From an uncultured Acidobacteriota bacterium (GTDB lineage Bacteria; Acidobacteriota; Thermoanaerobaculia; UBA5066), in NCBI GenBank assembly GCA_963798215.1, contig CAWCSP010000004.1, positions 702,159-766,158 of the forward strand: a stretch of DNA of 64,000 nt. The letters are read 5' to 3'. Below the pieces are notes generated by a model. It searched no databases. It was not told where the DNA came from and worked only from the letters and a program-made list of their open reading frames with translations. This document shows positions 12,063 to 62,992 of the stretch, in pieces (position 1 is the first letter of the stretch; every line of letters starts with the position of its first letter). The translations under genes were made by a program, and so were the position numbers.

Positions 12063-13210
12063 CGGGCGCTTCCTTTCGCGGCGGCGTCCTTCGGATCGGA
12101 AACGGGCGCGCCGTCGGCGGGCGGAGCCGAGAGGCCGACGAGGACCGTCTCGCCGCCCGAGAGTCCGGACAGGATCTCGACCTTTCCTCCCGAGACGGCG
12201 CCGGTCGTGACGGCGCGAGTGCGCGCCTTGCCCGCATCGTCCTTGACGGCGACGAGGCTGACGCCGCCGCTCGCGAGGACGGCGCTCTCCGGGACGAGGA
12301 TCGAAGGCCGGGGCGCGCCGTCGAGGAAGGCGCGGCCGGTGAGGCCGGTCGCCAGCGGACCGCCGGGCAGCTCGAGAGTCGCGGTGTACGTGTGGCTGCC
12401 CGGGTCGGCGCCGGGCGACATCTCGACGACGGTGCCCGTCATGTCGGCGGCGACGCCGTCGATCCGGACGGAGAGCTTCTGGCCGGTCTTGAGGCCCGAC
12501 GCGGCGACGGTGCCCGCCGGGACCTGGACGACGAGCCGGCGGCCCGTGGCGGACTCGACGACGACGAGCGGGCGGCCCGGGGCCGCGAGGTCGCCGGCCT
12601 CGACGAGGCGGGCGGAGACACGGCCTGCGAAGGGCGCCGTCACGCGGGACTCGCGTGCGACGGAGGAGGCTGCTTCCACCGCGCCTTCGCCCTGCTCGAC
12701 GGCGCCCTTCGCCTGCTCGTACTGCATCCGGGTCATGTCGAGCTCGAGCGCGGACGCCGAGCCGGAGGCCGCGAGGCCCTTGTAGCGCTCGTAGTTGCGC
12801 TCGGCGAGGGAGAGCGCGGCACGGGCCTGCGCGAGAGCGCCCTTGGCCTGAGCGACCTGTCCGCTCGCGGTCGCGGCGTCGATCTCGACGAGGACGTCGC
12901 CCGCGGCCACGGACTGGCCGACGCGGGCGGGGACGGCGACGACGTTCGCCATCACGCGCGAGGACACGGCGGCCGACCGGTCGGCGGTCACGGTGCCGTA
13001 TAAAGTCAGACGGTCGGGCAGCGAGGCCCGCTCGACCAGCGCTGTGGCTGCCGCAACGGCGGGAATTTCTTTCTTAGAAGGTGAATGAGTGCCTCCGCAG
13101 CCGAGAAGGGTCCCGGCAGCGACGAGACCTCCCACCACCTTCGAAGAAAATCCGAATCCGGTCTTCTTCCGATCTTTCTCCCTCAAAGAAAATCCGAATC
13201 CTTCTTTCAT
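12059..13210 (-). CDS. efflux RND periplasmic adaptor (membrane fusion protein), lipoprotein
   Basis: 383-aa C-terminal part of ORF 12059..14395(-) from ATG 13210. LLGCGG lipobox; HlyD-like body. The N-terminal 28 aa (MKEGFGFSLREKDRKKTGFGFSSK) are encoded by AT-rich repeat DNA, and a GTG at 13138 is an alternative start. The 4-nt overlap with the RND gene suggests translational coupling. Confidence 0.8.
   Translation of the reverse strand: MKEGFGFSLREKDRKKTGFGFSSKVVGGLVAAGTLLGCGGTHSPSKKEIPAVAAATALVERASLPDRLTLYGTVTADRSAAVSSRVMANVVAVPARVGQSVAAGDVLVEIDAATASGQVAQAKGALAQARAALSLAERNYERYKGLAASGSASALELDMTRMQYEQAKGAVEQGEGAVEAASSVARESRVTAPFAGRVSARLVEAGDLAAPGRPLVVVESATGRRLVVQVPAGTVAASGLKTGQKLSVRIDGVAADMTGTVVEMSPGADPGSHTYTATLELPGGPLATGLTGRAFLDGAPRPSILVPESAVLASGGVSLVAVKDDAGKARTRAVTTGAVSGGKVEILSGLSGGETVLVGLSAPPADGAPVSDPKDAAAKGSAR
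13064..13148. repeat. inverted pair of the AT-rich motif TTTCTTAGAAGGTGAA (13071-13085, forward) and CACCTTCGAAGAA (13136-13148, reverse) inside the adaptor gene 5' region
   Basis: Read by eye from the sequence. The same 15-mer, ttcttagaaggtgaa, recurs at 62818-62832. Confidence 0.5.
13144..13201. repeat. 16-nt direct repeat aagaaaatccgaatcc x2 (13144-13159 and 13186-13201, period 42)
   Basis: Exact copies read from the sequence. They encode the GFGFS...GFGFS repeats in the N-terminal extension of the adaptor protein. Confidence 0.6.
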
Positions 13211-13230
13211 TTCTTCCTTCCTGGTCCTTC

Positions 13231-14613
13231 TCACTTCGTGTCTCCGTTCAATGCCGTTTCGGGGCGGCGCCCCGCCTTGACGGCGAGCGTCAGCGCCGCC
13301 GTGTGCGCGTCGGCCCGGGCGACCAGCTCGCGCGTCTCCGCCTCGCGGCGGGCCGTGGTGGCGTCCAGGAGATCGAGCGTCTTCACGACGCCCGCCCGGA
13401 ACCTCTCTTCGGTGATGCGCTCGGCCTCGCGGGCCGAATCGAGCGCTTTCTTCGCGGTCTCGTGCCGGGCCTGGGCCGTCCGGGCCTCCTCCCAGGCCTG
13501 CCGGACCTCGAGGCGGACGCCGTCGGCGAACCGGGCGACGTCCTCGCGGCCCGCACGGGCCTCCTCGCGCGCCGCGATGGCGGCGGCGCGGTCGCTGCCG
13601 CCCGCGAACACGTTCCACGTCGCGACGGCCGTGATCGAGCCCGACGTGCCCGTCGACCCGAACGGCGTGTCGCCATAGAGCTCGCCCTTGGCGACGAGCG
13701 CCAGCTTCGGCCAGATCGGGGCCTTCTTCACCTGTTCCTCGAGCTCTCCGGCCGCGAGGAGCTTCTTCGCCGAGCCGAGGTCCGCGCGCGTGGCGGCCGT
13801 CGCGAGCCAGCCGTCGACGGGCGAGGCGACGGGACGCGGGTCGGGCAGGGGCGAGAGCGCCCAGGACGTCTCGCCGGGGGCGCCGAGGCGGAACGCGAGG
13901 TTCGCGTTCGCGATCCTCACGCGGCCGTCCGCCTCCGTCACGAGGTCGTCCATCCGGGCGAGCTCGACCTCGGCCCTCAGGAGCTCCGAGCGCACGAGCA
14001 TGCCCTGCGCGACGTAGTCGCCGGCCAGCTTGACGTGCGCGGCGACCGTGTCGCGCGACTTGTGGAGCAGCGACGCGTACTCCTCGGCCTGGGCGACCAT
14101 GACGTAAGCCTCGGCGGCCGCGAGGGCCGCGTTGTCGGCGACCCACGAGGTCGTCTCCGACGCCGACGCGGCGGCGAGCTTCGCCTGGTCGATCCGGCCC
14201 GAGAGCTCTCCGCCCGTGAAAAGGGGGAGGACGACCTCGGCGCGCGTGATCCCGGTATTCAGGGGCGAGGCGTCGTTCGGGTTCGAGGCGACGAACTCCG
14301 GGAACGAGAAGACGCCCTGGTTGAGCTTCAGGGCGAAGACCTCGGCGGGATTGTTCGTGCGCATCCAGAGGGCGGTCAGGTTCACGGACGGCCACCGGAA
14401 GCCCTTCGCCTGCGAGGCGCGGGCCTCGGCCGCGCCCTGGCGGGCCTGCGCCGCCGTGACCTCGCGGGCATTTTCCCGGGCTTTCTGCATCGCGTCCGCG
14501 AGCGTCAGGGTCGGGTCCGGTCCGGTTCCGGACCCGGCCCGGGCGAAGGAGGGTGCCGCGAGGGCGGCCGCCACGAGGACGATCCGGGCGGCTGCACGGG
14601 TCTTGTCATTCAT
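13231..14613 (-). CDS. TolC-family outer membrane efflux protein
   Basis: 460 aa with a signal peptide and two OEP repeats; sits in an operon with the adaptor and RND genes. Confidence 0.8.
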   Translation of the reverse strand: MNDKTRAAARIVLVAAALAAPSFARAGSGTGPDPTLTLADAMQKARENAREVTAAQARQGAAEARASQAKGFRWPSVNLTALWMRTNNPAEVFALKLNQGVFSFPEFVASNPNDASPLNTGITRAEVVLPLFTGGELSGRIDQAKLAAASASETTSWVADNAALAAAEAYVMVAQAEEYASLLHKSRDTVAAHVKLAGDYVAQGMLVRSELLRAEVELARMDDLVTEADGRVRIANANLAFRLGAPGETSWALSPLPDPRPVASPVDGWLATAATRADLGSAKKLLAAGELEEQVKKAPIWPKLALVAKGELYGDTPFGSTGTSGSITAVATWNVFAGGSDRAAAIAAREEARAGREDVARFADGVRLEVRQAWEEARTAQARHETAKKALDSAREAERITEERFRAGVVKTLDLLDATTARREAETRELVARADAHTAALTLAVKAGRRPETALNGDTK

Positions 14614-14684
14614 AGATTTCTCTTATATAACTATATATCGATTGAAGTCAACCGGCTTGAACGCCGGACGACAAGGAGAAAACG
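14614..14684. promoter_or_regulatory. AT-rich divergent promoter region with tandem TATATA hexamers (ttatataactatatat)
   Basis: A 71-nt AT-rich island in 70% GC DNA, lying between the tolC-like gene and the DUF2892 gene; SD aaggag precedes the DUF2892 ATG. Confidence 0.3.
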
Positions 14685-14915
14685 ATGACTCTCAACGACG
14701 CCCTCCGCGGACTCGGCGGCTTCTTCACCCTGGTCTCCGTCGCCCTCGGCTACTGGGTCCACCCCGCGTTCTTCCTCTTCACCGCCTTCGTCGGCGCGAA
14801 CCTGCTCCAGAGCGCCTTCACGAAGACGTGTCCGATGGTCCCGATCCTGAGAAAGGCGGGCCTGACGGACACGCTGCCTGCGGCGAAGGCGCCCGGTTAC
14901 GGCGACGCCGGATGA
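14685..14915 (+). CDS. DUF2892 (YgaP-like) small inner-membrane protein
   Basis: 76 aa with two TM segments and a conserved CP motif (TKTCPMVPILRKAGL); good SD upstream. Confidence 0.6.
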   Translation: MTLNDALRGLGGFFTLVSVALGYWVHPAFFLFTAFVGANLLQSAFTKTCPMVPILRKAGLTDTLPAAKAPGYGDAG

Positions 14916-15367
14916 AATACGACGTCTCGTTTCCCGGCGGCGTCGCGGTCGAGGCGACTGCGAAGGGCCACATCGTGAGGACGGACCAGCCGGCGCCGCT
15001 CGGCGCGGATTCCGCCCCGGCCCCGTTCGACGTCTTCATCGCCTCGATCGCGACGTGCATGGGCTTCTACGCCCTGCGCTTCTGTCAGGAGCGCGGGATC
15101 CCGACCGAGCGGCTCGGCCTCTCCCTCGAGACCGTTCGCGACGAGGAGAGAAAGCGCCTGTCCTCGATCGACGTCTCGATGACGCTCCCCCCGGACTTTC
15201 CCGAGAAGTACCGGCAGGCGATCGCCCGGGCCGTCGACCAGTGCGCGGTCAAGAAGCACATGCTCGAAGCGCCGGCGTTTTCGCTGAAGATCGAGCCGTG
15301 GCGTCAGACGGGCCCGAACAGCCCCCAGGCGAGCGCGGCGAGGACCGCGAGCGTGATGCCGACGTAG
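14912..15367 (+). CDS. OsmC/Ohr family peroxiredoxin-like protein
   Basis: C-terminal part of ORF 14132..15367 from ATG 14912 (ATGA overlap with the DUF2892 stop). Contains ...PFDVFIASIATCMGFYALRFCQERGI... with the two OsmC cysteines. Confidence 0.7.
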   Translation: MKYDVSFPGGVAVEATAKGHIVRTDQPAPLGADSAPAPFDVFIASIATCMGFYALRFCQERGIPTERLGLSLETVRDEERKRLSSIDVSMTLPPDFPEKYRQAIARAVDQCAVKKHMLEAPAFSLKIEPWRQTGPNSPQASAARTASVMPT

Positions 15368-15681
15368 AGCCGGTCCTTCTCGCGGGTGAACTCGACGAGG
15401 CAGAGCGCCACGCGCGCGACGGGAGTCGCGAGGAGGAGAAGGACGCCGATCTGCATGATGCCGCGCGGATCGCCGCGCGCCGCGTCGCCGATCGCGCCCG
15501 TGATCGTCCGGAACGCCGCGGGCTCGCCCCGGAACACGTGGAAATCGGCGTGCCGCCCGCCCTCCCGCAGGAGGAACGGGATGAGGCCGAGAGCGATCAC
15601 GGCGCTCGCGACGATCATGCCGAGACGCAGGATCCCGCCGACCTCGAGCGCGAGGCGGCGCTCGCTGCGCCCGACCGTCAC
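15304..15681 (-). CDS. DUF1634 membrane protein
   Basis: 125 aa from GTG 15681 overlapping the TauE stop (GTGA). Hydrophobic segments. The DUF1634 family assignment rests on DUF1634/TauE gene adjacency recalled from memory, not on a recognised motif. Confidence 0.55.
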   Translation of the reverse strand: MTVGRSERRLALEVGGILRLGMIVASAVIALGLIPFLLREGGRHADFHVFRGEPAAFRTITGAIGDAARGDPRGIMQIGVLLLLATPVARVALCLVEFTREKDRLYVGITLAVLAALAWGLFGPV

Positions 15682-16514
15682 ACGGCCCCCCGCAGCCCCT
15701 GGGTGATCATCTGGATTCCCATCACGAGGACGACGGCCGTGAAGACGATCCTCAGAATCGTCGAGCGCGTCCTCGTGAGGATGCGCGCGCCAAGCGCCGA
15801 GCCCGCGACGACGCCGAGGACGACGGGTGCGGCGAGCACCGGATCGATGTACCCCCGGCCGAAGTAAACGCCCGCGCTTGCCGCGGCCGTCACGCCGATC
15901 ATGAAGTTGCTCGTCGTCGTCGAGACCTTGTAGGGGAGACCGAGGACGTTGTCCATCGAGAGGACCTTGAGCGCCCCCGAACCGATCCCGAGGAGGCCCG
16001 ACACCGCGCCCGCCACGATCATCAGGAGCCATGCGTACGGCACGTGGCGCGGGAAGTAGGTCTGCTCGCCGGTGAGCGAGGGAAAGGAGCCGTTCAGCTT
16101 GAGGCGCGTCGCGATGGGGTCGGGGGAGCGGTTTCCCGGCCCCGCGACGTGCCCGTGCCACGAGAACGCGGTCGAGCCGAGGAGGACGACGCCGAAGATC
16201 ACGGCGATCGCGGACGTCGGCGTCCACGCCGCGAGGTACGCGCCGAGGAGCGCGCCGAGCGTCGTCGCGATCTCGAAGAAGAGGCCGATTCTCACGTTCG
16301 AGAAGCCCTCGCGCACGTACGCGGCGGCCGCGCCGCTCGACGTCGCGATCACGGCGACGAGAGCCGTCCCGATCGCGTACTTGATGTCGACGCCGAGGCC
16401 GAGGGTCAGGAGCGGAACGAGAACGACGCCGCCGCCGAGGCCCGTGAGCGCGCCTACGAAACCCGCGGCCGCCGCGCCGCCGAAGAGAAGCGCCGTGAAG
16501 CCGAGGACGTTCAC
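15678..16514 (-). CDS. sulfite exporter TauE/SafE family permease (DUF81)
   Basis: 278 aa from GTG 16514; duplicated 4-TM halves with Gly-rich motifs GALTGLGGGVVLVP and GLLGIGSGALKV. Confidence 0.75.
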   Translation of the reverse strand: MNVLGFTALLFGGAAAAGFVGALTGLGGGVVLVPLLTLGLGVDIKYAIGTALVAVIATSSGAAAAYVREGFSNVRIGLFFEIATTLGALLGAYLAAWTPTSAIAVIFGVVLLGSTAFSWHGHVAGPGNRSPDPIATRLKLNGSFPSLTGEQTYFPRHVPYAWLLMIVAGAVSGLLGIGSGALKVLSMDNVLGLPYKVSTTTSNFMIGVTAAASAGVYFGRGYIDPVLAAPVVLGVVAGSALGARILTRTRSTILRIVFTAVVLVMGIQMITQGLRGAV

Positions 16515-17233
16515 GCGGCGGGCTCCGGGGACGGGTCGGCGAGGATCCCCGAGAGTCTCGCGACGACTTCCGCGCCCGCGTGCCTGTCGTACGGCGCGGC
16601 GTAGAAGGCGTCGAGGTCCATCGGGGGATGGAGCGTCAGGTGGCACTTCCGGAGGACCTTGCCCGGGATCTGCCGGTAGAGGAGCAGCCGGCGGAACCCG
16701 TCCACGCGCACGGGGACCGCGGTCGCCTTCGTCCGGTGGAGGAGCTGGGCGACGCCGGGCCTGAGCGGAGCGCCCTTCTGCGTCGTCCCGGCGGGGAAAT
16801 GGAGCAGCCAGCCGTTCGCGATCGCTTCCTCGACCTTCGCGACGCCCTCGAGGTCCACGGAGCGCTTCACGTCGCGCCCGCCTTCGCGGAAGCTGCGCCT
16901 GAAGGTGACGGCGCCCGCCTTCGTGAAGAGCCGCATCGCGAGGTTCTTCTGCATCGTCTCCGTCGCCGCCGAGAAACGCGTGAAGGGGTTTTCGAGCGGC
17001 AGCGCGTGCTTGACGTAGACGAGGTCGAAGAACGCGATCGCCTCCATGAAGTACGTCTGGTGGTTGGACAGGAAGACGACGTTCTTCCGCGGAAGCGTGT
17101 CCAGAATCGCGTCGCCCGTCGCGTGGACGCGGTTCAGGAGGCGGAAGTACGGCAGCGTGAACCCGAACGCGAAGCCCGAGATGAGTCCGCGGCGGATCCA
17201 TCGGTCGAAGAACGACTGTTCCAGCGAGGCCAT
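16511..17233 (-). CDS. lysophospholipid acyltransferase (PlsC-like) family protein
   Basis: 240 aa with an NHQTYFMEA motif near the N-terminus. This is an imperfect match to the PlsC HX4D motif. Confidence 0.55.
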   Translation of the reverse strand: MASLEQSFFDRWIRRGLISGFAFGFTLPYFRLLNRVHATGDAILDTLPRKNVVFLSNHQTYFMEAIAFFDLVYVKHALPLENPFTRFSAATETMQKNLAMRLFTKAGAVTFRRSFREGGRDVKRSVDLEGVAKVEEAIANGWLLHFPAGTTQKGAPLRPGVAQLLHRTKATAVPVRVDGFRRLLLYRQIPGKVLRKCHLTLHPPMDLDAFYAAPYDRHAGAEVVARLSGILADPSPEPAA

Positions 17234-17261
17234 GTTTACGCGATTGTAAGGGGACCCCGGC

Positions 17262-17771
17262 TCAGGCGCCGGAGGCCCTCTCGATGCCCCAGACGACGAG
17301 GTCCGTCGCCTTCGGCGCGTGCCCGAGGCGGCGCAGCATCGAGGAGATCTGCCCGCGGTGATACGTCTGGTGGTTCACGACGTGCCACACGACGACGCCG
17401 AAATTCGCAGTCTTGAGCTCACCTTTGAGGTTCTTCCACGAGAAGGGCCCCGCGAGGCGCGCCGCGTCGTACGTCGGGAGAAGGGCCGCGTGCTTCTCCT
17501 GCGCCGCGAGCAGGACGCGGACGGCGTCGTCGAGAGTGGGCAGGTCGTGGATGGTCGGGAGGCGCGTCGCGTCTTTCCCGGCGAAGCGCTCGGCCCATGC
17601 GTCCGTCGCGCCCGCGATGTGGACGAACGTGGCCCTCAGCGACGGCCAGCCCCCGCCCTGCTCTTTCTCGTAGTCGTGCTCCGGGATGGTCCGGAGGGCC
17701 TCGACGACGCGCGCGTTCGCCCAGACGTTGAAGGCGTAAAGGGACGCGAGGTCGTCCGGAGGAAACGTCAT
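17262..17771 (-). CDS. DinB/YfiT-like family protein
   Basis: 169 aa from ATG 17771 (ATGA overlap with the FAH gene); HVVNHQTYHRGQI metal-binding triad motif. Confidence 0.65.
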   Translation of the reverse strand: MTFPPDDLASLYAFNVWANARVVEALRTIPEHDYEKEQGGGWPSLRATFVHIAGATDAWAERFAGKDATRLPTIHDLPTLDDAVRVLLAAQEKHAALLPTYDAARLAGPFSWKNLKGELKTANFGVVVWHVVNHQTYHRGQISSMLRRLGHAPKATDLVVWGIERASGA

Positions 17772-18757: not shown

Positions 18758-18807
18758 CGCGGCCGAGTTTATACGCCCCGCGCTAACATCGGGACGGAGG
18801 GAAACGC

Positions 18808-19860: not shown

Positions 19861-19920
19861 GTCAGCCGGCTCAACGGCGATGTCGAGCAGGCGTGCAGCG
19901 CGGGGCCCGACAGGGAACGC

Positions 19921-24470: not shown

Positions 24471-24608
24471 TACTCGACCACGTTGTCGGCGAGGAGCGGC
24501 ACCTCAGGCGGGATCGTAAGCCTGGGCGCGTTCGCAGTCTCGCGAACGCGGGGCGTGACCCACCTCGAGGCGTCGAAGGTCGGAGCTATATGGTAGTATG
24601 GCACTCGT

Positions 24609-24905
24609 ATGGCAAAGGTGAAGATGACGTTCACGCTGGACGCCGAAACCGCCGCCAGTCTCCGGCAGGCTTCCGAAAGACTTTCCAGGCCCCAGAGCGC
24701 GGTCGTGAACGAGGCGATCCAGGACTTCAGCGAGCGGGTCGGACGCCTGAGCGAGCGCGAGCGGCTGCGGATGCTGGAGGTCTTCGACGCGGTCGTCGCG
24801 CCCCTGCCTTCAAGGTCGATGGCCCGGGCGAGACGCGAGATCGAGGAGATCCGGCAGGCGCGTCGCAGCGGCGGGCGGAGCGGCCGCTCGGACGCGCCCC
24901 GGTGA
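24609..24905 (+). CDS. vapB: ribbon-helix-helix antitoxin (VapB/CopG-like)
   Basis: 98 aa, MAKVKMTFTLDAETAASLRQASERL...; GTGA overlap with the downstream PIN gene. Confidence 0.6.
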   Translation: MAKVKMTFTLDAETAASLRQASERLSRPQSAVVNEAIQDFSERVGRLSERERLRMLEVFDAVVAPLPSRSMARARREIEEIRQARRSGGRSGRSDAPR

Positions 24906-32196: not shown

Positions 32197-34506
32197 GTGA
32201 GCAATCGCCTCGCGGGAGAGACGTCGCCGTACCTCCTCCAGCACGCCCGGAATCCAGTCGACTGGTGGCCATGGGGCGAGGCGGCTTTCGCGAAGGCCCG
32301 CCGGGAGGACCGGCCCATCTTCCTCTCGATCGGCTATTCGTCGTGCCACTGGTGTCACGTCATGGAGAAGGAGTCGTTCGAGAACGTTGCTGTCGCCGAC
32401 GTCCTGAACGAGCACTTCGTCGCGATCAAGGTCGACCGCGAGGAGCGCCCCGACGTGGACGACGTCTACATGACGGCCGTCCAGCTCACAACCGGGCGCG
32501 GCGGCTGGCCGCTCTCCGCGTTCCTCCTGCCGGACGGCAAGCCGTTCTTCGCGGGGACGTACTTCCCGCCCGACGACCGCCACGGCCGCGCCGGATTCCG
32601 GACTCTCCTCCTCCGGATCGCGCAGGCCTGGGGCAACGAGCGCGCGGCGCTCGAGGACTCCGCGCGCCAGATCGCCGCCGAGGTCGCGCGCGCCGCCGAC
32701 CCCGCGGGCCGCGGCCCCGCAGAATCCCTCTCGCGCGACGCGCTGCTCCTCCCGGGCGCGGCGCTCGCGCAGGCCTTCGACCCGCGCCACGGCGGCTTCG
32801 GCGGCGCGCCGAAGTTTCCGCCGCACGTCGCGCTGGAGTGGCTCCTCGCGCGCGGCGCCGGAGGCGACGCCGCGGCGCTGGCGCACGCGATCGGAACGCT
32901 CGACGCCATGGCGCTCGGCGGCATCCGTGACCACCTCGGGGGCGGCTTCCACCGCTACTCGACGGACGCCGAATGGCTCCTCCCGCACTTCGAGAAGATG
33001 CTCACGGACAACGCCCAGCTCCTCGGCGTCTACGCGTGCGCGTACGCCGTCACGGGCGACACGCTCTACGCGCAGGTCGCGCGCGAGACGGGCGACTACC
33101 TCCTCCGCGAAATGCGCGGCACCGAGGGCGGCTTCTTCGCCGCGACGGACGCGGACTCGGAGGGGGAAGAAGGAAAATATTTCTGCTGGGACCCCGAGCA
33201 GATCCTCGAATGCCTCGGCGAATCGGACGGGAGTTATTTCTGCGAATGGTATGGGGTGCGGGAGGGCGGCAACTTCGCCGAGGAAGCGACGGGGCATGGC
33301 ACCGGCGCCTCGGTCCTCTTTCTTTCTAAGAAAATCTCCTCTTCACCGGGCGCCGAAGAACGTCTCGCGCCGCTCAGGCACAAACTTCTCGATGCGCGGA
33401 GCAAGAGAATCCCTCCCTCCCTCGACGACAAGCGCGTCTCGGGCTGGAACGCGCTCGCCGTCTCCGGCTTCGCCGTCGCGGCGCGCGCGCTCGCCGAGCC
33501 GCGCTACCTCGAGGCCGCGCGCGTCGGCGCGCGCTTCCTCTTGAACGTCGCGCGCCTCCCGGACGGCGTCCTCGCGCGGACGTGGAAGGACGGCGAGGCG
33601 AAGATCCCCGCGTTCCTCGAGGACGAGGCGTTCCTCGCGCTCGCGCTCCTCGACCTCGCGGACGCCGAGGGCCCCGGCGCCGCCGGGATCTGGCACGAGG
33701 AGGCGAGGGCCGCGGTGGAGTCGCTGCGCGCGCGCTTCCGCCGGAAGGACGGCCCGGGCTTCCGGTTCTCGGGAGAAGGCAACGAGACCCTGCTCTCGAA
33801 CGGCCGCGACCTCTTCGACAAGGCCGTCCCCTCGGCCTCCGGCGGGGCGGCGCGGGCGCTTGCGCGCCTCGCGCTCGCAACGGGCAACCGCGGGCTCGCG
33901 AGGGAGGCGAAGGACGCCGTCGACGAGGTCGGCTGGCTCATGGCGCGCTCGCCGCACGGCACGGAGTCCTGGTTCTTCGCGCTGGAGGCGCTGTTCGAGT
34001 TCGAGGACCGGTACGGTCTGCTCCCTCTCGCGGACACCCTCAGTGACTCGGGACCCACAGCGGGGCTGGGCGCCGGTGATTTTTCTTCGAAGGTGAATGG
34101 AGGAGAGAACGCCTCAGCGCCCACTTCGCCGGTGCGCGTCGAGGGGGTGGCCGTTGAGCCCAAAGTCGTGCGCGGCGGCGAAGGCGCGCTCATCCTCAGG
34201 ATTTCCGTCGCTCCCGGCTGGCATTTGCAGGGCCCCGACGGGCTGCGCATCGAGGCCTGGGGCGGGTCCGAATTCACCTTCGACGAGGTCCCGTTGCCGG
34301 AGCCCCTGAGGTTGACCAGCTCGGCGCACGACGAGGAGACCGGCTGGTACGGGACGTTCGAGGTTGCGCTCTCGTTCTCCGTCGCCCCGAGGGCGGCGAA
34401 AGGGAAGAGAGACGTGAGCGTGCGCGTGGCGTATCGCGCCTGCGGCGAAGGCGCATGCCGCCCGGACGCGGTGGCGTCGCTCTCGATCCCCGTCGAGATC
34501 GTCTGA
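32197..34506 (+). CDS. thioredoxin-domain protein, YyaL/DUF255 (N-acylglucosamine 2-epimerase-like) family
   Basis: 769 aa from GTG start; DUF255 signature [18 protein letters not shown]; (alpha/alpha)6-barrel-like middle region; extra C-terminal domain. Confidence 0.8.
34078..34100. repeat. single copy of the motif variant gatttttcttcgaaggtgaatgg within the yyaL-like gene
   Basis: 17 of 19 identical to 13069-13087. Confidence 0.4.
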
Positions 34507-51158: not shown

Positions 51159-51186
51159 AAGTAATGCTAATAATAATAGAAAGACT

Positions 51187-51318
51187 ATGAGTTTGAAGAA
51201 TTCCTTCGAATGCGGTCCAATTCGCGCCGTGATGGTTCTCGCCCGCATCGCCGTTCCCGTCCTTCTGCTTTCGAAGGAAATTTCTCTCGTCCTTACGGAG
51301 AGACAGGCGGCGAGCTGA
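51187..51318 (+). CDS. putative ilv-leu operon leader peptide (43 aa, 15 Ile/Val/Leu)
   Basis: [45 protein letters not shown]-rich, uses rare att/gtt/ctt/ttg codons. Its stop lies 28 nt before a terminator hairpin. Confidence 0.4.
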
Positions 51319-51346
51319 CGGGAAACGAGAAACACATCAGCCAGCC

Positions 51347-51373
51347 GCCCCGCAGACGCGGGGCTTTTTTTTT
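51347..51373 (+). terminator. intrinsic terminator / attenuator hairpin (gccccgc-agac-gcggggc followed by T9) 30 nt upstream of ilvD
   Basis: 7-bp GC stem, 4-nt loop and 9 consecutive T, read directly from the sequence. A possible antiterminator pairing is ggcggc 51306-51311 with gccgcc 51344-51349. Confidence 0.55.
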
Positions 51374-51403
51374 GGACCGGATTTCGAGGAGGTCATCGGG
51401 AGC

Positions 51404-54825: not shown

Positions 54826-54835
54826 GGAGGCTGAG

Positions 54836-55120
54836 ATGCAAGAGACCTATGAAATCAAGGCGAAGGATGCTCCCGGTCTTCTGGCAAGGGTCGAATCACT
54901 CTTCAGGCGCCAGCGCGCGCCCATCCGGAGCTTTTTCTTCGAAGGGTGTGAAGGCGGTCCGGTCGCGAGGCTCGTTCTCGTCGCGGAAGCCGACGAGGAG
55001 CGCTCGAATCTCCTTCAGAAGCAGCTCTTGCGCCTCGAGGACGTGATCGAGGTCGTCCGGTCGCGCGACGCCGTCGCCTTCGCGCAGCCCGAATTCACCT
55101 TCGAAGAAAGAACAGCCTAG
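54836..55120 (+). CDS. ilvN: acetolactate synthase small regulatory subunit, short ACT-only form
   Basis: 94 aa. The ACT domain aligns with IlvH/IlvN residues 1-80, but the C-terminal domain is missing. The gene ends inside an AT-rich repeat-motif cluster. Confidence 0.55.
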   Translation: MQETYEIKAKDAPGLLARVESLFRRQRAPIRSFFFEGCEGGPVARLVLVAEADEERSNLLQKQLLRLEDVIEVVRSRDAVAFAQPEFTFEERTA

Positions 55121-55185
55121 AAGGTTGAGAGAAGGCCGCTCGCAGCGCGCCGGCGGCGCCCAGCCCCTTTCCACCTTCTAAGAAA
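55094..55185. repeat. cluster of three motif copies at the ilvN 3' end and ilvN-ilvC intergenic region (55094-55108 reverse; 55116-55128 forward, degenerate; 55173-55185 reverse) forming a stem-loop-capable inverted pair
   Basis: ttcaccttcgaagaa / cctagaaggttga / caccttctaagaa, read from the sequence. Confidence 0.5.
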
Positions 55186-55232
55186 AATAGCATCACCTGA
55201 GCCAAACCATCAACACGACGAGGATCGAAGAC

Positions 55233-56247: not shown

Positions 56248-56248
56248 C

Positions 56249-57529: not shown

Positions 57530-58654
57530 ATGGGGAAGCGCGCGCGCATCGCGGTCCTGCCGGGCGACGGCATCGGTCCGGAAGTGACGGCGGGAGCCGT
57601 CGCCGTCCTGAAGGCGGTCGAGGCGCGCTTCTCTCACACGTTCGTCCTCTCCGAGTGGCTCGTCGGCGCGCGCGCCCTGCGCGAGAAGGGGACGCCGCTG
57701 CCCGAGGACACGCTCGTCGCGTGCAAGGACGCGGACGCCGTTCTCATGGGCGCCGTCGGCGACCCGGCGTACGACCTGGCTCCCCGGGACCAGCGGCCCG
57801 AGTACGGCCTCCTCCAGTTGCGCAAGGCGCTCGGCGCCTACGCGAACATCCGGCCGGCGCGCCTCTACCGTGCGCTCGCGGACGCGGGCCCGCTCAAGCC
57901 CGAGGTCGCGCGCGGCCTCGACCTCGTCGTCGTGCGCGAGCTGACGGGAGGGCTTTACTTCGGGACGCCGCGGTCCGTCGACCTCGCGGCGGGGACGGCC
58001 GTGAACACGCTGCCGTACACGCGCATGGAGGTCGAACGCATCGCGGAGATGGCGTTCCGGCTCGCGGCGACGCGGCGGAACAAGGTGACGTCGGTCGACA
58101 AGTCGAACGTCCTCGAGACGTCGCAGCTCTGGCGCGCCGTCGTGACGGAGGTGGGAAAACGCCACCCGGACGTCACGCTCGAGCACCAGCTCGTGGACTC
58201 GTGCGCGATGAACCTCGTCCTTTTCCCGTCGGCGTTCGATGTGGTCGTGACCGAGAACCTCTTCGGCGACATCCTGTCCGACGAGTGTGGCGCGCTCGTC
58301 GGCTCGCTCGGGCTCCTGCCCTCGGCGAGCCTCGGCGACGGTCCCGGCCTCTTCGAGCCCGTGCACGGCTCGGCGCCGCAGATCGCGGGCCGCGACCTCG
58401 CGAACCCGATCGGCGCGATCGCGACGGCCGCAATGCTCCTCGGGGACGGGCTCGGCCTGCACGAGGAGGCGGCCGCGGTCCACCGGGCGATCGAGGCCGC
58501 GCTCGAGAAGGGCGCGCGCACGGCCGACCTCGCGCAGAAGAGCACGCGCGCCCTCGGGACGCGCGAGATGACACGGGCGATCGCCGACGAGATCGCCGCC
58601 GCAACGACGTCGATGGCGCCGGGCCGCGAAGCGGCCTCAGGGGCGCCGCAGTGA
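57530..58654 (+). CDS. leuB: 3-isopropylmalate dehydrogenase
   Basis: 374 aa; ...VDKSNVLETSQLWR..., ...NLFGDILSDE..., ...GSAPQIAGRDLANPIGAI...; ATG directly abuts the leuA stop. Confidence 0.9.
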   Translation: MGKRARIAVLPGDGIGPEVTAGAVAVLKAVEARFSHTFVLSEWLVGARALREKGTPLPEDTLVACKDADAVLMGAVGDPAYDLAPRDQRPEYGLLQLRKALGAYANIRPARLYRALADAGPLKPEVARGLDLVVVRELTGGLYFGTPRSVDLAAGTAVNTLPYTRMEVERIAEMAFRLAATRRNKVTSVDKSNVLETSQLWRAVVTEVGKRHPDVTLEHQLVDSCAMNLVLFPSAFDVVVTENLFGDILSDECGALVGSLGLLPSASLGDGPGLFEPVHGSAPQIAGRDLANPIGAIATAAMLLGDGLGLHEEAAAVHRAIEAALEKGARTADLAQKSTRALGTREMTRAIADEIAAATTSMAPGREAASGAPQ

Positions 58655-58658
58655 GGCT

Positions 58659-59633
58659 GTGATGGGAATGGAATCGAAGTGGATCTGGAAAGACGGCGAC
58701 CTCGTGCCTTACGAGGACGCGACGCTGCACTTCCTCACGCCCGGCCTTCACTACGGGATCGGCGTCTTCGAGGGAATCCGGTGCTACGCGACGAAGGCCG
58801 GCCCGGCGATCTTCCGGCTCCCGGAGCACATCCGGCGCCTGAGGCTCTCCGCGAAGGCCCTGGGCTTTGACGCGCTGCCGTTCTCCGAGGAGGAGCTCGT
58901 CGAGGCGACGAAAGAGACGGTCGCGAAGAACGGCTTCTCCGAGTGCTACATCCGCCCGATGATCTGGCTCGACGGCGGCGGCTGGAACCTGAACCTCGAC
59001 GGCGGCAAGCCGGCGATCGGGATCGCGGCGTGGGAGTGGAAGAACTACCTCGGCGAGGCGGCGCTCGAGAAGGGCGTGCGGGCGAACGTCTCGTCGTTCA
59101 CGCGCCACCACCCGAACGTCTCGATGACGAAGGCGAAGATCAGCGGCAACTACGTGAACAGCTTCCTCGCGAAAACGGAGTCCGTTCGGCTCGGCTTCGA
59201 CGAGGCGATCATGCTCGACCCGAACGGGTACGTTGCCGAGTGCACGGGCGCGAACCTCTTCGTCGTCAAGGACGGGCGCATCGTCACGACGCCGTCCGCT
59301 CCGATCCTCGAGGGGATCACGCGCGACACGCTCCTCGCCCTCGCGAAGGAGCTCGGCTACGAGGTCGTCGAGCAGGCGATCGCGCGCGACCAGCTCTACA
59401 TGGCCGACGAGGTCTTCGTCTGCGGGACGGCCGCCGAGTGCGTCGCACTCCGCGAGGTGGACTTCCGGACGATCGGGGCGGGCGTCACCGGACCGGTCAC
59501 GCGGGCGCTCCAGAAGGCGTACCACTCGGCGGTGCGCGGCGCGCATGCGCGCTCGAAGGAATGGTGCTCTCCGGTCCGCGAGGCGCGGCGGTACCCGGCT
59601 CCCGTCCGGCTCGTCCGCGCCCGGCGCCGCTGA
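58659..59633 (+). CDS. ilvE: branched-chain amino acid aminotransferase
   Basis: 324 aa; ...GLHYGIGVFEGIRCY..., ...SMTKAKISGNYVNS... (PLP Lys), ...EVFVCGTAAEC... Confidence 0.85.
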   Translation: MMGMESKWIWKDGDLVPYEDATLHFLTPGLHYGIGVFEGIRCYATKAGPAIFRLPEHIRRLRLSAKALGFDALPFSEEELVEATKETVAKNGFSECYIRPMIWLDGGGWNLNLDGGKPAIGIAAWEWKNYLGEAALEKGVRANVSSFTRHHPNVSMTKAKISGNYVNSFLAKTESVRLGFDEAIMLDPNGYVAECTGANLFVVKDGRIVTTPSAPILEGITRDTLLALAKELGYEVVEQAIARDQLYMADEVFVCGTAAECVALREVDFRTIGAGVTGPVTRALQKAYHSAVRGAHARSKEWCSPVREARRYPAPVRLVRARRR

Positions 59634-59642
59634 CCGGCCGGG

Positions 59643-60104
59643 TCAGTGCATCCGTTTGACCCTGGGCTCCGTGCGCGGCGCGCGGGCCTTCAGAACCCTG
59701 CGGTCCGGATGCGTCGGGCGGTCGATGCCGCGGCCAAGGATCTCGAGAAGGTCGGACGTCGTGACGATGCCGACCAGGCGTGGCGTCCGGCCGGGCTGGA
59801 CGACGGGGAGGCAGCTGATGTTGCGGCCCCGCATGAGGTTCGCGGCCTGGCGGACGGACATCTCGGGGTCGGCGGTCACGACGTGCGGCGACATGACGTC
59901 GGCCACGCGGTGGTTGCGCCGGAACTCGTCCTGGCTCGGGGCCCCGAGATCGTGCGAGGACACGACGCCGACGAGCGCGGCGTCGTCGTCACGGACGACG
60001 AGGTGGCGGACGTTGAGGGCTTTCATGGTCGCGAACGCGGTTTCCGCGGTCTCCCGGGCCGCGATCGTCCTCACGTCCGGAGTCATCACGTCCTGAACGC
60101 GCAT
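59643..60104 (-). CDS. CBS-pair domain protein
   Basis: 153 aa with two CBS motifs (...VRHLVVRDDDAALVGVVSSHDL..., ...ISCLPVVQPGRTPRLVGIVTTSDLL...). Confidence 0.6.
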   Translation of the reverse strand: MRVQDVMTPDVRTIAARETAETAFATMKALNVRHLVVRDDDAALVGVVSSHDLGAPSQDEFRRNHRVADVMSPHVVTADPEMSVRQAANLMRGRNISCLPVVQPGRTPRLVGIVTTSDLLEILGRGIDRPTHPDRRVLKARAPRTEPRVKRMH

Positions 60105-60205
60105 GGACCCTCCTTACCGGCGCACCTGGCGCGCCTGCATCCGTCTGGAAGGTGGGTCCGCGCGCCCTCCCGCGCATGGAGCAGATGAATCAGGGCGCCG
60201 GACGC

Positions 60206-61864
60206 CTAACGGGACGCGGTCTTCACGGCCACCTTGCCGTGGAGGACCTCTCCGGCTTTCACCTGCGCCTGGCGGGACAGGTCGATCGACTCGGCGAGGA
60301 TGCGGGCCATCTCCTGCGGGGCGTGGAAGCCCATGGAGTTCTCGGCCGCCACCATGTCGAGGCGCCACTGCGCCGCGCGCTGCAGCTCGCCCAGCTCCCT
60401 GATGGCCGGATCCTTGTCCACGACCGTGCGCCACGCGGCGAGGAGGTTCGCCTTCGTCTCGGCGGCCAGCTTCTTGTCCTGGTCTTCCTTGGCGAGCTTC
60501 AGGAAGTCAGCGTCCTTTTCGAGCGTGGCCTTCGCCTTCACGGCCGCGGCGGGGCGGTTCTGCTCGTCGTACGGCGCCCGCACGGCCACGATCGCGTCGA
60601 TCATGGCGACAGCCGCCTGGCCCGCGCGCGTCATGAGCGCGAAGTGCCGGTCCTGGATGGCCTCGACGCGGCTCTTGAGCTCCTCGTCGCTGTACGGGTG
60701 GCACGTGGCACACGAGCGGTTCGCCGAGAGGAGCGGGCTTCGCACCCAGTGCTCGGAGATCTTCTGGGCGCCATCGCGGCGGTACGACATGTGGCAGTCG
60801 GCGCAGGCGACGCCGCTCCGGGCATGGATGCCCTGGCTCCACATCTCGAACTCGGGGTGCTGGGCCTTGAGCACCTCCATGCCGGTTTCGGCATGCGTCC
60901 AGTCCTTGAACCGGGCGCCCTTGACCTGCATGCCGTCGTAGACCTTCTCCATGTCCTCGACCTTCAGTCCCTCGCCCCACGGGAAGAAGATCGTCGTGCC
61001 TTTGCCGCAGAAGTACTCGACGTGGCACTGGCCGCAGACGTACGAGCGCTTCTCCTGCCGCGTCGCGTCGATGTTGGGGTCGTACGGGTGGGCGCGGTCG
61101 CCCTTCCGCCAGCGCTCGATGCTCGGCAGATGCGGCACGTCGGCCTTCGAGGCGGCCAGCTTCTGGATGCCGGCGATGAAGGCCGGGCGCGTCACGCGCA
61201 GCTCCATCGACTTCGGGTCGTGGCAGTCCACGCACGAGACCGGGTGGACCTTGCCGCCGGTCACCTGCTCGAGCGCCTTGTGGGCGTCCCAGTAGCCCAT
61301 CTCGCCGACCTTCTCAAGCCCCTTCTGCAACTGCTCGGCCTCGCTCGCCTGCGGCGCCGCTTCCTTCCCGAGCTTCTTGTAGAGCGGGATGATCGACGCG
61401 TGGCAGTGGAGGCAGTTGCCCGACTGCTTGGCTTCGGCCGGCACGTTGCGCTTCGTGTTCTCCTGGTCGGTCAGCATGAACGCGTGGCCCCGGCGGTCGC
61501 GGTAGTCGACCGCGAAGAGGTACCCCGCGAAGATCCGCGTCAGCCACGGGTCGCGCGCGGCCTTCTCGGGCGGCACGAGGCCCTCGGCCCCGCCCCAGCC
61601 TCCGCCGTACTTCGTGTGCGTCGGCTCGGACGTGCGCTTGTACCCGTCGTACTCGCGCGGCCAGTTTGTGCCCCACTTGGCCGGATCGACGTCGTTCTCC
61701 GTCACCTCGGCGAGCTTGACGTAGGAGTTCTTCGCCTCCTGCTTGCGCTCCGTGATGTTGACGAGCAGGGCGGCGGCGACGAGGGCGACGAGGGCGAAGA
61801 CGCCCGCGACGAGGGCGATGAGGAGCCCGCTCTTTTTTTTGGGCCCGGCGTTGTCTGCGGTCAT
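60206..61864 (-). CDS. nrfA: ammonia-forming cytochrome c nitrite reductase, pentaheme NrfA
   Basis: 552 aa with an N-terminal TM anchor and five CxxCH motifs (CLHCH, CVDCH, CGQCH, CADCH, CATCH); Ca-site residues. Confidence 0.9.
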   Translation of the reverse strand: MTADNAGPKKKSGLLIALVAGVFALVALVAAALLVNITERKQEAKNSYVKLAEVTENDVDPAKWGTNWPREYDGYKRTSEPTHTKYGGGWGGAEGLVPPEKAARDPWLTRIFAGYLFAVDYRDRRGHAFMLTDQENTKRNVPAEAKQSGNCLHCHASIIPLYKKLGKEAAPQASEAEQLQKGLEKVGEMGYWDAHKALEQVTGGKVHPVSCVDCHDPKSMELRVTRPAFIAGIQKLAASKADVPHLPSIERWRKGDRAHPYDPNIDATRQEKRSYVCGQCHVEYFCGKGTTIFFPWGEGLKVEDMEKVYDGMQVKGARFKDWTHAETGMEVLKAQHPEFEMWSQGIHARSGVACADCHMSYRRDGAQKISEHWVRSPLLSANRSCATCHPYSDEELKSRVEAIQDRHFALMTRAGQAAVAMIDAIVAVRAPYDEQNRPAAAVKAKATLEKDADFLKLAKEDQDKKLAAETKANLLAAWRTVVDKDPAIRELGELQRAAQWRLDMVAAENSMGFHAPQEMARILAESIDLSRQAQVKAGEVLHGKVAVKTASR

Positions 61865-61894
61865 GACGTGCTCCTATTCGGGTGGTGACGAATC

Positions 61895-62365
61895 TCAGCG
61901 CGGGTGGCCGACCGACGCGTGGCAGCGGACGCACGAGACGTCGCCGCTTTGGGACATCGAGTCGACGAGATCGGCGTGGCAGCGGCGGCAGTTGGCTTCG
62001 ACGACCGCCGTGCTCTCGGGGCGGGCGCGGATCACGTCCGGGTAGCCGCCCATCGTGAAGGCCCACGAGTGGTGCCAGCCGTTGAGAGCCTTGACGGCAT
62101 ATTTCGAGACCGGCCCGGCCGGGGTGTGGCAGTCGTTGCACGTGGCGGCGCCGTGGTGGGGCCCGGTCAGCCAGCCGGCGTAGTGCCCGGCCATCACGTG
62201 GCAGTTGGCGCACGTTGCGGGGTCGTTTCCCATGTAGGACGAGCCCTTGGCGTACCAGAAGGCGTAGCCGCCGACCCCGAGCGCCAGCCCGGCCGCGGCG
62301 GCGGCGAGCGTCAGGGGGACCGGGAGGAGAGAAAACCCGCGGCTCGACCTCATGCGCGCCCGCAC
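61895..62365 (-). CDS. nrfH: NrfH (NapC/NirT family) tetraheme membrane quinol dehydrogenase
   Basis: 156 aa with an N-terminal TM helix and four CxxCH motifs (CANCH, CNDCH, CRRCH, CVRCH). Confidence 0.85.
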   Translation of the reverse strand: MRARMRSSRGFSLLPVPLTLAAAAAGLALGVGGYAFWYAKGSSYMGNDPATCANCHVMAGHYAGWLTGPHHGAATCNDCHTPAGPVSKYAVKALNGWHHSWAFTMGGYPDVIRARPESTAVVEANCRRCHADLVDSMSQSGDVSCVRCHASVGHPR

Positions 62366-62408
62366 AACGTAGGGGCGCCGGCAATTTCCCGTCGATGAGA
62401 CAGGTGAA

Positions 62409-62927
62409 TCACGGCCGGAAGCCGTTCGCGACGAGCGGCTTGGCGTCGGTCTGGGGGACGTGACAGGTGGTGCAGACGAACCGGCTGCCTGCGATCTCGG
62501 CCCGCTTTACGGTCGGGGCGTTCCGGAGGTCGACGTAGTGACTCGCCGGGGCCTGGACGGGTCCGTCGGCATCGGGCTTGTCCATGGCATGACACGTCAG
62601 GCAACCGTTGTCGGCGCGCGTGATCGGGAGCATGCCGTCGACCGTGTGCGGGATGAGCGGCGGCGCGAAGTCGAACGGGCGGGGGAGAACCTTGCCGTCG
62701 CCGGGGTCCTTCGCTGAATACTCGTACGAGCGCGGCGCCGGAACGCCGGTGACGGGCGACTTTTCGAGGCCGAGGCTCGCGTCCGGGATTCCGGAGACGG
62801 AGGAGGGGACCGAAGATTTCTTAGAAGGTGAAGGGGTCGATGCGCAGGCGACGAGAGCCGCGGCTGCGGCGAGGGCAGCGCTCGCTGCGCACGCCAAGGC
62901 AAGTGGAGATCGGGTCGCTGATCGCAT
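62409..62927 (-). CDS. napB: periplasmic nitrate reductase dihaem cytochrome c subunit NapB (lipoprotein-type signal)
   Basis: 172 aa; LVACAS lipobox-like signal; two haem motifs CLTCH and CTTCH with the spacing typical of NapB. Confidence 0.8.
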   Translation of the reverse strand: MRSATRSPLALACAASAALAAAAALVACASTPSPSKKSSVPSSVSGIPDASLGLEKSPVTGVPAPRSYEYSAKDPGDGKVLPRPFDFAPPLIPHTVDGMLPITRADNGCLTCHAMDKPDADGPVQAPASHYVDLRNAPTVKRAEIAGSRFVCTTCHVPQTDAKPLVANGFRP

Positions 62928-62992
62928 CGTGGCCTGCCTTTCTTCTCTCTACCTTCTAAGCTCTTCTCTTTTTCTTCTTCTTTTCTTTCTCA
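62813..62992. repeat. motif copy in napB 5' coding region (62818-62832), inverted partner accttctaag (62951-60), and a 52-nt pyrimidine-only tract (purine-only on the mRNA) between napA and napB
   Basis: tcttctctctaccttctaagctcttctctttttcttcttcttttctttctca at 62941-62992, read from the sequence. Confidence 0.5.

Follow-up and report, generated by a model that had tools for sequence, protein, structure and literature searches.

A short AT-rich motif that recurs together with its reverse complement at a few gene junctions was studied in a 64,000-nucleotide stretch of DNA (the window; contig CAWCSP010000004.1) from a metagenome-assembled genome (MAG) of the Thermoanaerobaculia (Acidobacteriota). 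The motif is 14-20 bases long, with the core TTTCTT[A/C]GAAGGTG and an extended form close to TTTCTTAGAAGGTGAAGAGG. We refer to the version that reads UUUCUU[A/C]GAAGGUG on the mRNA as the F arm, and to its complement, CACCUUC[U/G]AAGAAA, as the R arm. Codon comparisons among orthologues of two unrelated lipoprotein genes, an RND efflux adaptor gene and napB, show that selection on the motif acts at the nucleotide level, beyond the encoded peptide. The instances of the motif were also shown to be partly paralogous and to lie mainly at intra-operon cistron junctions, and the element to be low-copy and restricted to a Thermoanaerobaculia subclade. As to its function, we tentatively put forward a model in which the two versions are cis-acting RNA arms, one Shine-Dalgarno-like and the other anti-Shine-Dalgarno-like, that would tune expression of the downstream cistron.

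Adaptor DNA was compared among nine distinct lineages recovered from metagenomes (fetched relative loci carry L-numbers below). In the 293 codon columns with a conserved amino acid, the mean GC content at third positions (GC3) was 0.89. A GC3 no higher than 0.2 was seen in only five of these columns, which lie side by side, CAT TCA CCT TCT (AAG) AAA, and correspond to the motif. The same codons are rare within their synonymous sets in the genes of the window (CAT 9%, TCA 2%, CCT 5%, TCT 4%, and AAA 8%). The peptide SPSKK is spelled tca cct tct aag aaa in both lipoproteins, with a probability of ~4e-6 per gene given the codon usage of the window, and the bases TCA CCT TCT AAG AA[A/G/C] were present in every SPSKK-clade NapB lineage fetched (window/L058, L063, L064/L065, L066, and L005). 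An earlier sequence-only reading of the window had considered the shared AT-rich codons to be more than selection on the protein would produce, and the conservation of these rare AT-ending codons across orthologues bears this out. Pure protein-level convergence is excluded by the synonymous-site pattern and by the existence of non-coding copies.

The distance from the lipobox Cys codon to the motif is 12 nt in the adaptor and NapB alike, and both proteins carry C-x4-SPSKK. Of 108 adaptor homologues, 49 have exact C-x4-SPSKK and 78 the looser pattern C-x4-[SDHL]PS..; among 37 NapB homologues, 9 have the exact form. The adaptor F arm, too, is conserved in orthologues: 76 adaptor homologues carry both F-type and R-type peptides, while sister clades carry neither. 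The adaptors of the sister clades (MKIGIV..CGHSKEAPGKNDL and MKLW..CGGKHEAKE; also CGHSKEAPGK) lack the motif and use GC-rich codons at this place, and the NapB sister clade has CATAPPAAKKE, coded ...GCA GCG AAG AAG GAG. Since the sister clades show GC-rich codons and no motif, the motif was acquired within a subclade, in the adaptor and NapB both, and then kept.

In the window, whose GC content is 69.8%, motif copies account for 6-7 of 15 short low-GC islands. The 15-mer TTCTTAGAAGGTGAA occurs exactly at 13071 and 62818, with one-mismatch copies at 34083 (plus strand), 55094 (minus), and 55170 (minus). When up to two mismatches were allowed, five matches to it were found, while 0.00 were expected from 100 dinucleotide-preserving shuffles. 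The 13-mer TTCTNAGAAGGTG, searched in the same way, gave seven matches against 1.44 expected from shuffles, and added a copy at 13136 (minus). The form TTCTT[A/C]GAAGGTG has six occurrences in the window, against none expected from shuffles. A chance origin is ruled out by the shuffles together with the codon-usage probabilities; non-chance origin had been proposed from the letters alone, and similarity between loci that reaches 30-90 nt (see below) agrees with it. A sequencing or assembly artefact is likewise ruled out, because the motif keeps the reading frame and recurs in many metagenome assemblies made independently (contigs from ENA, JGI, Logan, and NCBI). The features are listed here by window position.

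13062..13087, minus strand: R arm in the RND adaptor gene (12059-13210, minus), CAT TCA CCT TCT AAG AAA GAA ATT CC, encoding HSPSKKEIP
13135..13153, minus strand: F arm in the adaptor gene, GGA TTT TCT TCG AAG GTG G, encoding GFSSKV, R partner 52 nt off
13180..13195, minus strand: degenerate second F-like unit in the repeat-rich n-region of the adaptor, sense GGATTTTCTTTGAGGG, complementary to 13062-13072 (11 nt, 91%)
33316..33337, plus strand: partial R-like copy in the yyaL-like gene, CCTCTTTCTTTCTAAGAAAATC, with TCT AAG AAA encoding SKK; weak profile match, E 0.059
34078..34105, plus strand: F-type copy in the yyaL-like gene, GAT TTT TCT TCG AAG GTG AAT GGA GGA G, encoding DFSSKVNGG
54931..54950, plus strand: F-type copy within ilvN (54836-55120), TTT TTC TTC GAA GGG, encoding FFFEG; coding and conserved in all relatives
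55092..55112, plus strand: R-type copy in the final codons of ilvN, TTC ACC TTC GAA GAA AGA, encoding FTFEER; coding version of relatives, CCCTCTTCACCTTCGAAGAAAAAAG
55115..55135, plus strand: F arm of the ilvN-ilvC spacer hairpin, GCC TAG AAGGTTGAGAGAAGG, including the ilvN stop codon
55147..55190, plus strand: R arm and GC-rich flank in the ilvN-ilvC spacer, CGCCGGCGGCGCCCAGCCCCTTTCCACCTTCTAAGAAAAATAGC; non-coding
62810..62838, minus strand: R arm in napB (62409-62927, minus), sense CCC CTT CAC CTT CTA AGA AAT CTT CGG
62810..62838, minus strand: the same napB R arm in frame, ACC CCT TCA CCT TCT AAG AAA TCT TCG, encoding TPSPSKKSS
62928..62992, minus strand: AG-rich napA-napB spacer module, holding the F arm (sense GAGCTTAGAAGGTAGAGAG) at 62945-62968

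The copies listed in the sequence-only reading are real, and lie 1-3 nt from where it had placed them. The variant at 34083 is indeed inside the yyaL-like gene, as is the partial copy at 33324, and the copy given as 55173-55185 exists but is better placed at 55170-55184. Three loci with inverted pairs had been named, the adaptor gene, the ilvN-ilvC spacer, and the nap junction, and all three were confirmed; the copy at 55094 does not belong to the spacer, and occupies the last codons of the 94-aa IlvN open reading frame (ORF; FTFEERTA*). In the adaptor, 13070-13083 is 93% complementary to 13136-13149 (14 nt, gap of 52 nt). In the ilvN-ilvC spacer, 55118-55131 and 55167-55180 are 86% complementary (14 nt, gap of 35 nt), and at napB, 62820-62829 and 62951-62960 match at 100% over 10 nt across a gap of 121 nt. 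An additional pair, absent from the earlier account, joins 54934-54945 and 55098-55109 inside ilvN (12 nt, 100%, gap of 152 nt). A conserved long-range stem between these two ilvN coding copies was rejected, as changes in relatives are uncompensated.

At least six of the 11 window copies are translated. Copies are located in transcribed DNA in both orientations, mostly at operon cistron junctions (outer-membrane factor gene-adaptor gene, napA-napB, ilvB-ilvN, and ilvN-ilvC), and also in two domain linkers. In all four close pairs, the F arm lies 5′ of the R arm on the sense strand. The adaptor F arm directly precedes the hydrophobic core of the signal peptide, and the R arm follows the lipobox. 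At napB, the F arm lies 27 nt before the ATG, within the AG-rich leader, and the R arm covers codons 31-36. In the ilvN-ilvC spacer, the F arm overlaps the ilvN stop codon and the R arm follows 35-48 nt further on. The F copy at 34083 is found in a linker ahead of the C-terminal DsbD_N-like domain of the YyaL-like protein, and 23 nt of it resemble the adaptor F arm. The central palindrome of the motif is only 8-9 bp long (TTCTNAGAA / CTTCGAAG).

Similarity between loci extends beyond the core. The 5′ region of window napB aligned over 70-90 nt with adaptor 5′ regions of other genomes (score 64-69, compared with 18.8 ± 2.5 for shuffles), and the non-coding R arm of the ilvN-ilvC spacer matched adaptor DNA coding for the lipobox and linker at 33 of 38 nt (z 18.5). 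The spacer F arm resembles the F arm of the napB leader across 33 nt (z 10). In the ilvC leaders of L007 and L063, TGC-N12-TTACCTTCTAAGAAG reproduces the lipoprotein spacing, though it is not translated as a lipoprotein. A two-block alignment of the napB leader-to-R unit with the ilvC leader gave z ~10 in three comparisons, one of them within a single genome; the napB parts missing from the ilvC side are the ribosome-binding site, the ATG, and the signal-peptide core. The non-coding ilvN-ilvC spacer has the appearance of a napB leader-to-lipobox unit that was copied with an internal deletion. Tandem duplication of the 3′ end of ilvN (z 9) is an alternative origin for the spacer that is also significant, and the present data fit both. 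A further stretch of ~67 nt is shared by the window napA-napB spacer and the ilvB-ilvN spacers of L003 and L005 (score 68-72, z 12-13; AG-rich motif-free controls scored 30); it starts with the upstream stop codon and ends in an AG-rich run, with another AG-rich run and then GAGCTTAGAAGGTA in between. The interior of the adaptor pair is unrelated to those of the nap and ilvC pairs.

Comparison of orthologous loci, which the sequence-only reading had proposed, revealed insertion polymorphism at cistron junctions, patchy among relatives. The ilvN-ilvC spacer with its arm is present in the window, L007, and L063, and absent from L001-L006 and L008-L010. The napA-napB F arm and spacer are present in the window and L063, and absent from L064, L066, and L005. 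At ilvB-ilvN, the element is present in L003 and L005, and absent from the window and the other relatives. Copy number was low throughout: on the source contig, no further copies were found within 8.9 kb of the right end of the window or within 10 kb of its left end, an nhmmer profile of the 3′ arm detected no additional copies in the window, and a core profile found none in 627 kb of fetched loci. A single new copy was present in ~130 kb of untargeted DNA from related genomes that bear the motif. An abundant family of the REP/BIME (repetitive extragenic palindromic sequence/bacterial interspersed mosaic element) or uptake-site kind, which had been suggested for the window, does not agree with these counts. 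The broader suggestion of a dispersed repeat family holds insofar as the copies are related and patchily present; they are not abundant or demonstrably mobile, and some are long-conserved coding sequence. That the copies might be ordinary conserved coding sequence without pairing partners, named beforehand as grounds for abandoning the idea of a repeat, is true in part: the copy at the IlvN C-terminus is conserved coding sequence in all relatives, and the NapB copy has no partner in three lineages.

On mRNA, the F arm (UUUCUUAGAAGGUG) is purine-ended and Shine-Dalgarno-like, and its AGAAGGUGA pairs at 8 of 9 positions with the canonical 16S rRNA 3′ tail (the anti-Shine-Dalgarno). The R arm (CACCUUCUAAGAAA) resembles that tail. 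By pairing, F and R are predicted to close a stem-loop of 70-150 nt at its base. The inverted pairs were also folded as RNA, as the sequence-only reading had proposed. The arm pairs close the minimum-free-energy folds of the adaptor (-49.5 kcal/mol, z -3.2) and napB (-59.5 kcal/mol, z -2.8) regions and of the ilvC leaders of L007 (-40.7 kcal/mol, z -2.2) and the window; the first three fold better than their shuffles, and the window ilvC leader does not. The predicted napB loop contains the ribosome-binding site, the start codon, and the region coding for the signal peptide, and the adaptor loop contains the signal-peptide core. Across ten lineages, 9-13 Watson-Crick pairs of the 16-nt adaptor stem are kept and the stem cores are invariant; one pair is G-C in L019 and L031 and T-A in most other lineages. 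An independent 10-nt inverted pair (TTCCTTCGAA / TTCGAAGGAA), found in a putative attenuator leader of the ilv operon, was counted in favour of RNA arms.

In the model of cis-acting RNA arms, R would pair with F on the same mRNA or, where F is absent, with the purine-rich Shine-Dalgarno region of the gene itself. Such pairing would give the downstream cistron a level of translation, mRNA stability, or both that does not depend on the upstream one. The copies would have multiplied not by transposition but through local duplication, ectopic gene conversion, or template switching, events that would involve similar junctions and lipoprotein 5′ ends. We favour this model because of the constant sense order of F then R, the location at junctions, and the predicted folds.

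Several observations weigh against it. For the window ilvC leader, the fold (-34.8 kcal/mol, z -0.8) does not surpass those of shuffles, and its interior structure differs from that of L007. Covariation is weak: the change of GAAGG to GAAAG in five lineages is mostly uncompensated, as are the combinations of HDPSKK-type R arms with V-type F arms. The NapB R arm is fully conserved in L064, L066, and L005, which lack the F arm, so F-R pairing alone cannot explain conservation of R. The orientation-independent conservation of each arm would suit a double-stranded DNA site just as well. Given the weak covariation and the conservation of each arm by itself, our confidence in RNA arms is well short of even. 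Tests for strand preference, in which toleration of G-U on the sense and antisense strands was compared, showed none. A search against Rfam 15 found nothing at the gathering threshold in the window; at the three loci only chance-level matches were obtained (E of at least 0.37, 11-19 bits, compared with gathering scores of 42-380). No tRNA or tmRNA was found, and none of the three loci showed a promoter-like site in scans with the sigma-70 -35/-10 consensus. The sole terminator-like match, at 13048-13062 (plus strand), is antisense to the adaptor gene and makes no use of the motif pair. Antisense small ORFs starting from the Shine-Dalgarno-like arm were rejected, the spacing being unsuitable and such ORFs being missing from the ilvC leader. 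The yyaL linker was considered as a relic stop/start junction, which was rejected on account of incompatible frames.

We also considered a more specific proposal, to which we give only a slender chance, namely that a nucleotide "tag" placed exactly 12 nt past the lipobox Cys codon, together with its complement in purine-rich intercistronic leaders, constitutes an undescribed post-transcriptional control module. The module would consist of a leader, a ribosome-binding site, and a lipoprotein signal-peptide cassette, copied between cistron junctions as a portable start for translation and export, with the napB unit and the internally deleted copy before ilvC as two instances. A search of the literature found nothing relevant.

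The motif might instead be a selfish or neutral short repeat that does nothing, either the termini of a MITE-like (miniature inverted-repeat transposable element), REP/BIME-like, or RPE-like (Rickettsia palindromic element) sequence or duplicated junction fragments homogenised by gene conversion or template switching. A variable GC-rich interior bounded by inverted termini, patchy presence at orthologous junctions, and a last arm base that is concordant within a genome are what such a repeat would display; so are the resemblance of the ilvC leader to an internally deleted napB unit or to a tandem duplicate of the ilvN 3′ end, and the spacer module common to unrelated junctions. The one T-A to G-C double change in the adaptor stem could be a template switch. 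We nevertheless regard a functionless repeat as unlikely, since the rare codons are kept across orthologues that are 65-93% identical, implying purifying selection, and the adaptor R arm apparently evolved in place from HS-KEAPG-KNDL and not by insertion of a whole element. Filled and empty sites differ without target-site duplication, the adaptor interior is unrelated to those of nap and ilvC, copy number is very low in every stretch sampled, and no transposase, RAYT (REP-associated tyrosine transposase), or recombinase is found among the annotated window genes (Pfam). A recombinase would also be needed if the segment between the arms were an inverton, flipped so as to switch off export of NapB or the adaptor. 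Inverted repeats of 10-14 bp do surround segments of 35-121 bp that hold a ribosome-binding site, start codon, or signal peptide, and the flipped adaptor segment would, judging from its sequence, stay in frame. The flipped orientation was absent from more than 100 adaptor homologues, from the NapB and ilvC-leader sequences, and from all fetched DNA loci; the central dinucleotides of the adaptor arms differ (CG and AG), and a flip in the ilvC leader would have no obvious effect. An inverton is thus very improbable.

Conservation of each arm alone, in either orientation and with a variable central base, is readily accommodated by a double-stranded DNA site, TTTCTT[A/C]GAAGG, for a sequence-specific protein (a regulator, nucleoid protein, or roadblock) that would bind cooperatively or by looping to sites 50-130 bp apart. 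Compensation would be unnecessary, synonymous-site conservation is the expectation for a site embedded in a gene, and the three NapB lineages with R and no F would pose no difficulty. All copies, however, are 1-4 kb downstream of operon promoters and none is in the AT-rich divergent promoter regions of the window; the genes are functionally unlike (nitrate reductase, branched-chain amino acid synthesis, efflux, and a thioredoxin-like protein), and no candidate binding protein was found. Conservation is also asymmetric past the palindrome (GGTGAAGAGG), and F before R in four of four pairs is unexpected for a symmetric site, so that we find a DNA site rather improbable. About as doubtful, in our estimate, is a lipoprotein feature, in which C-x4-SPSKK serves as a tether, sorting, or modification motif and the rare codons as a slow-translation patch. 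The four-residue spacing between Cys and SPSKK is identical in both protein families, the sister NapB clade already has KK at +8/+9, and the patch is a run of the rarest codons of the genome. A peptide signal does not account for Pro being always CCT and never CCA, for the second Ser being TCT in eight of nine adaptor lineages and every NapB fetched, for the same 14-31 nt in non-coding DNA, or for the reverse complement in leaders and in non-lipoproteins (yyaL, ilvN, and the L064 oxidoreductase described below). Moreover, only two of the three clear lipoproteins of the window carry C-x4-SPSKK, and few other candidate lipoproteins are present in the fetched loci. A phmmer search with a 38-aa N-terminal query against 1.84 billion representatives returned 0 matches, and a profile built from nine NapB N-termini had none at E ≤10; neither search bears on how general C-x4-SPSKK is among lipoproteins of the clade.

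Comparison with known systems places the element with short inverted-repeat cis-elements at cistron junctions, among which it is unusual in being in frame, at a fixed offset, and in lipoprotein genes. MITEs, REP/BIMEs, uptake sequences, and invertons each fail in at least one defining testable feature. REP/BIMEs of enterobacteria and pseudomonads are likewise short intercistronic inverted pairs in operons that can form mRNA stem-loops and set differential cistron stability. REP units, however, are by themselves hairpins of 20-40 nt, extragenic, present in hundreds of copies, and linked to RAYTs, whereas the arms described here are not hairpins alone, half of the copies are translated, and the sampled copy number is very low; no RAYT or transposase was matched by Pfam among the annotated genes, and motif density is low in ~83 kb of the source contig. 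RPEs are also palindromic repeats translated in frame within unrelated genes, but they are full-length homologous insertions of 100-150 bp in many genes, subject to neutral decay, while in our case only the termini are shared, the interior codes for a functional signal peptide, and purifying selection acts on the arms across orthologues.

The sequence-only reading had also offered a MITE remnant. MITEs such as the Correia elements of Neisseria share with the motif terminal inverted repeats, presence/absence polymorphism, and, under the model of RNA arms, effects on neighbour expression via RNA hairpins, and terminal inverted repeats are indeed present (arms of 10-14 nt, 86-100% complementary, at four loci). 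The suggestion did not hold up in other respects. The indels at ilvN-ilvC (window, L007, and L063 compared with L002 and L008) have no flanking direct repeats, and no target-site duplication was seen at napA-napB (window and L063 compared with L064, L066, and L005) or ilvB-ilvN (L003 and L005 compared with the rest). No homologous interior, except for the likeness of nap and ilvC, no multi-copy distribution, and no parent transposon were found. A DNA uptake sequence (DUS/USS, ~1 copy per kb) was rejected, since the window has only four loci over its 64 kb and the 19 kb of flanks have none. In anti-Shine-Dalgarno translational operator hairpins, as here, a pyrimidine-rich CACCUUCU can pair with a purine-rich, Shine-Dalgarno-like stretch of the same mRNA, one on either side of the initiation region. 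The F arm, in contrast, is not a functional Shine-Dalgarno, being 27-37 nt upstream of the start in leaders and intra-coding in the adaptor, and the R arm lies 90-140 nt downstream in the ORF at a fixed lipobox offset. Lipoprotein sorting signals (Lol avoidance and the LES, the lipoprotein export signal of Bacteroidota) resemble the motif in being short peptides at a fixed distance past the +1 Cys, in unrelated lipoproteins of one lineage; known signals lie at +2 to +6 and are specified by amino acids, whereas the motif lies at +5 to +9, is specified by nucleotides, synonymous positions among them, and occurs also in non-coding DNA.

Were the arms functional RNA, they would show how an uncultured class of high GC content uncouples neighbouring cistrons (NapB from NapA, the efflux adaptor from the outer-membrane factor, and IlvC from IlvN), and would be a clear case of nucleotide selection overriding strong GC3 codon bias in coding sequence close to a signal peptide. 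The fixed lipobox offset and the non-coding relic raise the idea that modules of 5′ leader and lipoprotein signal are exchanged between genes. A neutral low-copy repeat kept uniform by gene conversion would be a mere curiosity of the clade.

The gene context was established with Pfam. The efflux operon of the window reads OEP, HlyD-type adaptor, ACR_tran; the ilv cluster is ilvD-ilvB-ilvN (94 aa)-ilvC-leuA-leuB-ilvE; and the nap cluster is napD-napA-napB-nrfH-nrfA. Relatives of IlvC, the adaptor, and NapB likewise all come from Thermoanaerobaculia/Acidobacteriota MAGs. The window matches contig_32982 of ENA ERZ25039489, which is 455 kb long, and the two copies differ by indels. The window ilvC is frameshifted (~55530) relative to the ENA copy, in which IlvC is intact at 337 aa, and napA (L058 7175-9939) is broken into two ORFs in the ENA copy. 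These frame differences are probably long-read indel errors, and exact protein look-ups may therefore fail. In L005 (~14170-14300, minus strand) and L066 (9940-10100), neither a stop codon nor a spacer separates napA from napB, and the NapA frame enters the NapB signal peptide (..CAVKVTKVATALLAAVLAGALLAC..), which implies, on the face of the reading frames, a NapA-NapB fusion or internal initiation at a GTG in the napA 3′ end.

The YyaL-like protein (Pfam DUF255/thioredoxin; gene 32197-34506, plus strand) has an additional DsbD_N-like C-terminal domain (approximately residues 652-757), attached via the AT-rich linker that holds the F-type motif; this linker may mark a gene fusion. The new copy outside the window is F-type, GATTTCTTAGAAGGGAAT (DFLEGN), and is located at L064 5690-5730 in a minus-strand gene (4169-6106) for a GltD-like oxidoreductase, in the linker between the Fer4_20 and FAD/NAD-binding (Pyr_redox) domains. 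It is the sole copy outside the nap, ilv, adaptor, and yyaL loci.

Intercistronic spacers of the clade are typically purine-only, (GAA/AAG/GAG)n, and extend for 10-85 nt from the stop codon to the ribosome-binding site; they were seen at window positions 62928-62992 and 54826-54835 and at ilvB-ilvN of L003-L010, and are unusual in a 70% GC genome. Upstream of ilvD (51404), window positions 51187-51400 (plus strand) contain a 43-codon ORF with many Val, Leu, and Ile codons and, after it, a GC hairpin with a T9 run. The ORF is conserved in L007, while a stop codon interrupts the L008 version. This arrangement looks like a classical leader-peptide transcription attenuator of the ilv operon.

The base that follows AAGAA in the R arm is concordant within the window genome, being A in all three copies (13071, 55170, and 62818). 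In a sister MAG, it is G in napB and the ilvC leader and C in the adaptor (L063 10093, L063 20236, and L067 10144). The within-genome agreement hints at concerted evolution (gene conversion) among copies. Finally, the cytoplasmic n-region of the adaptor signal peptide (window 13150-13210, minus strand) varies greatly in length among homologues P0001-P0120; a conserved MKIG start is followed by (GGATTC)n and AAGATCGGA-type repeats, which give rise to GFGFGF.. and RKIGLRKIG..., and the region resembles inserted, slippage-prone simple-sequence DNA.

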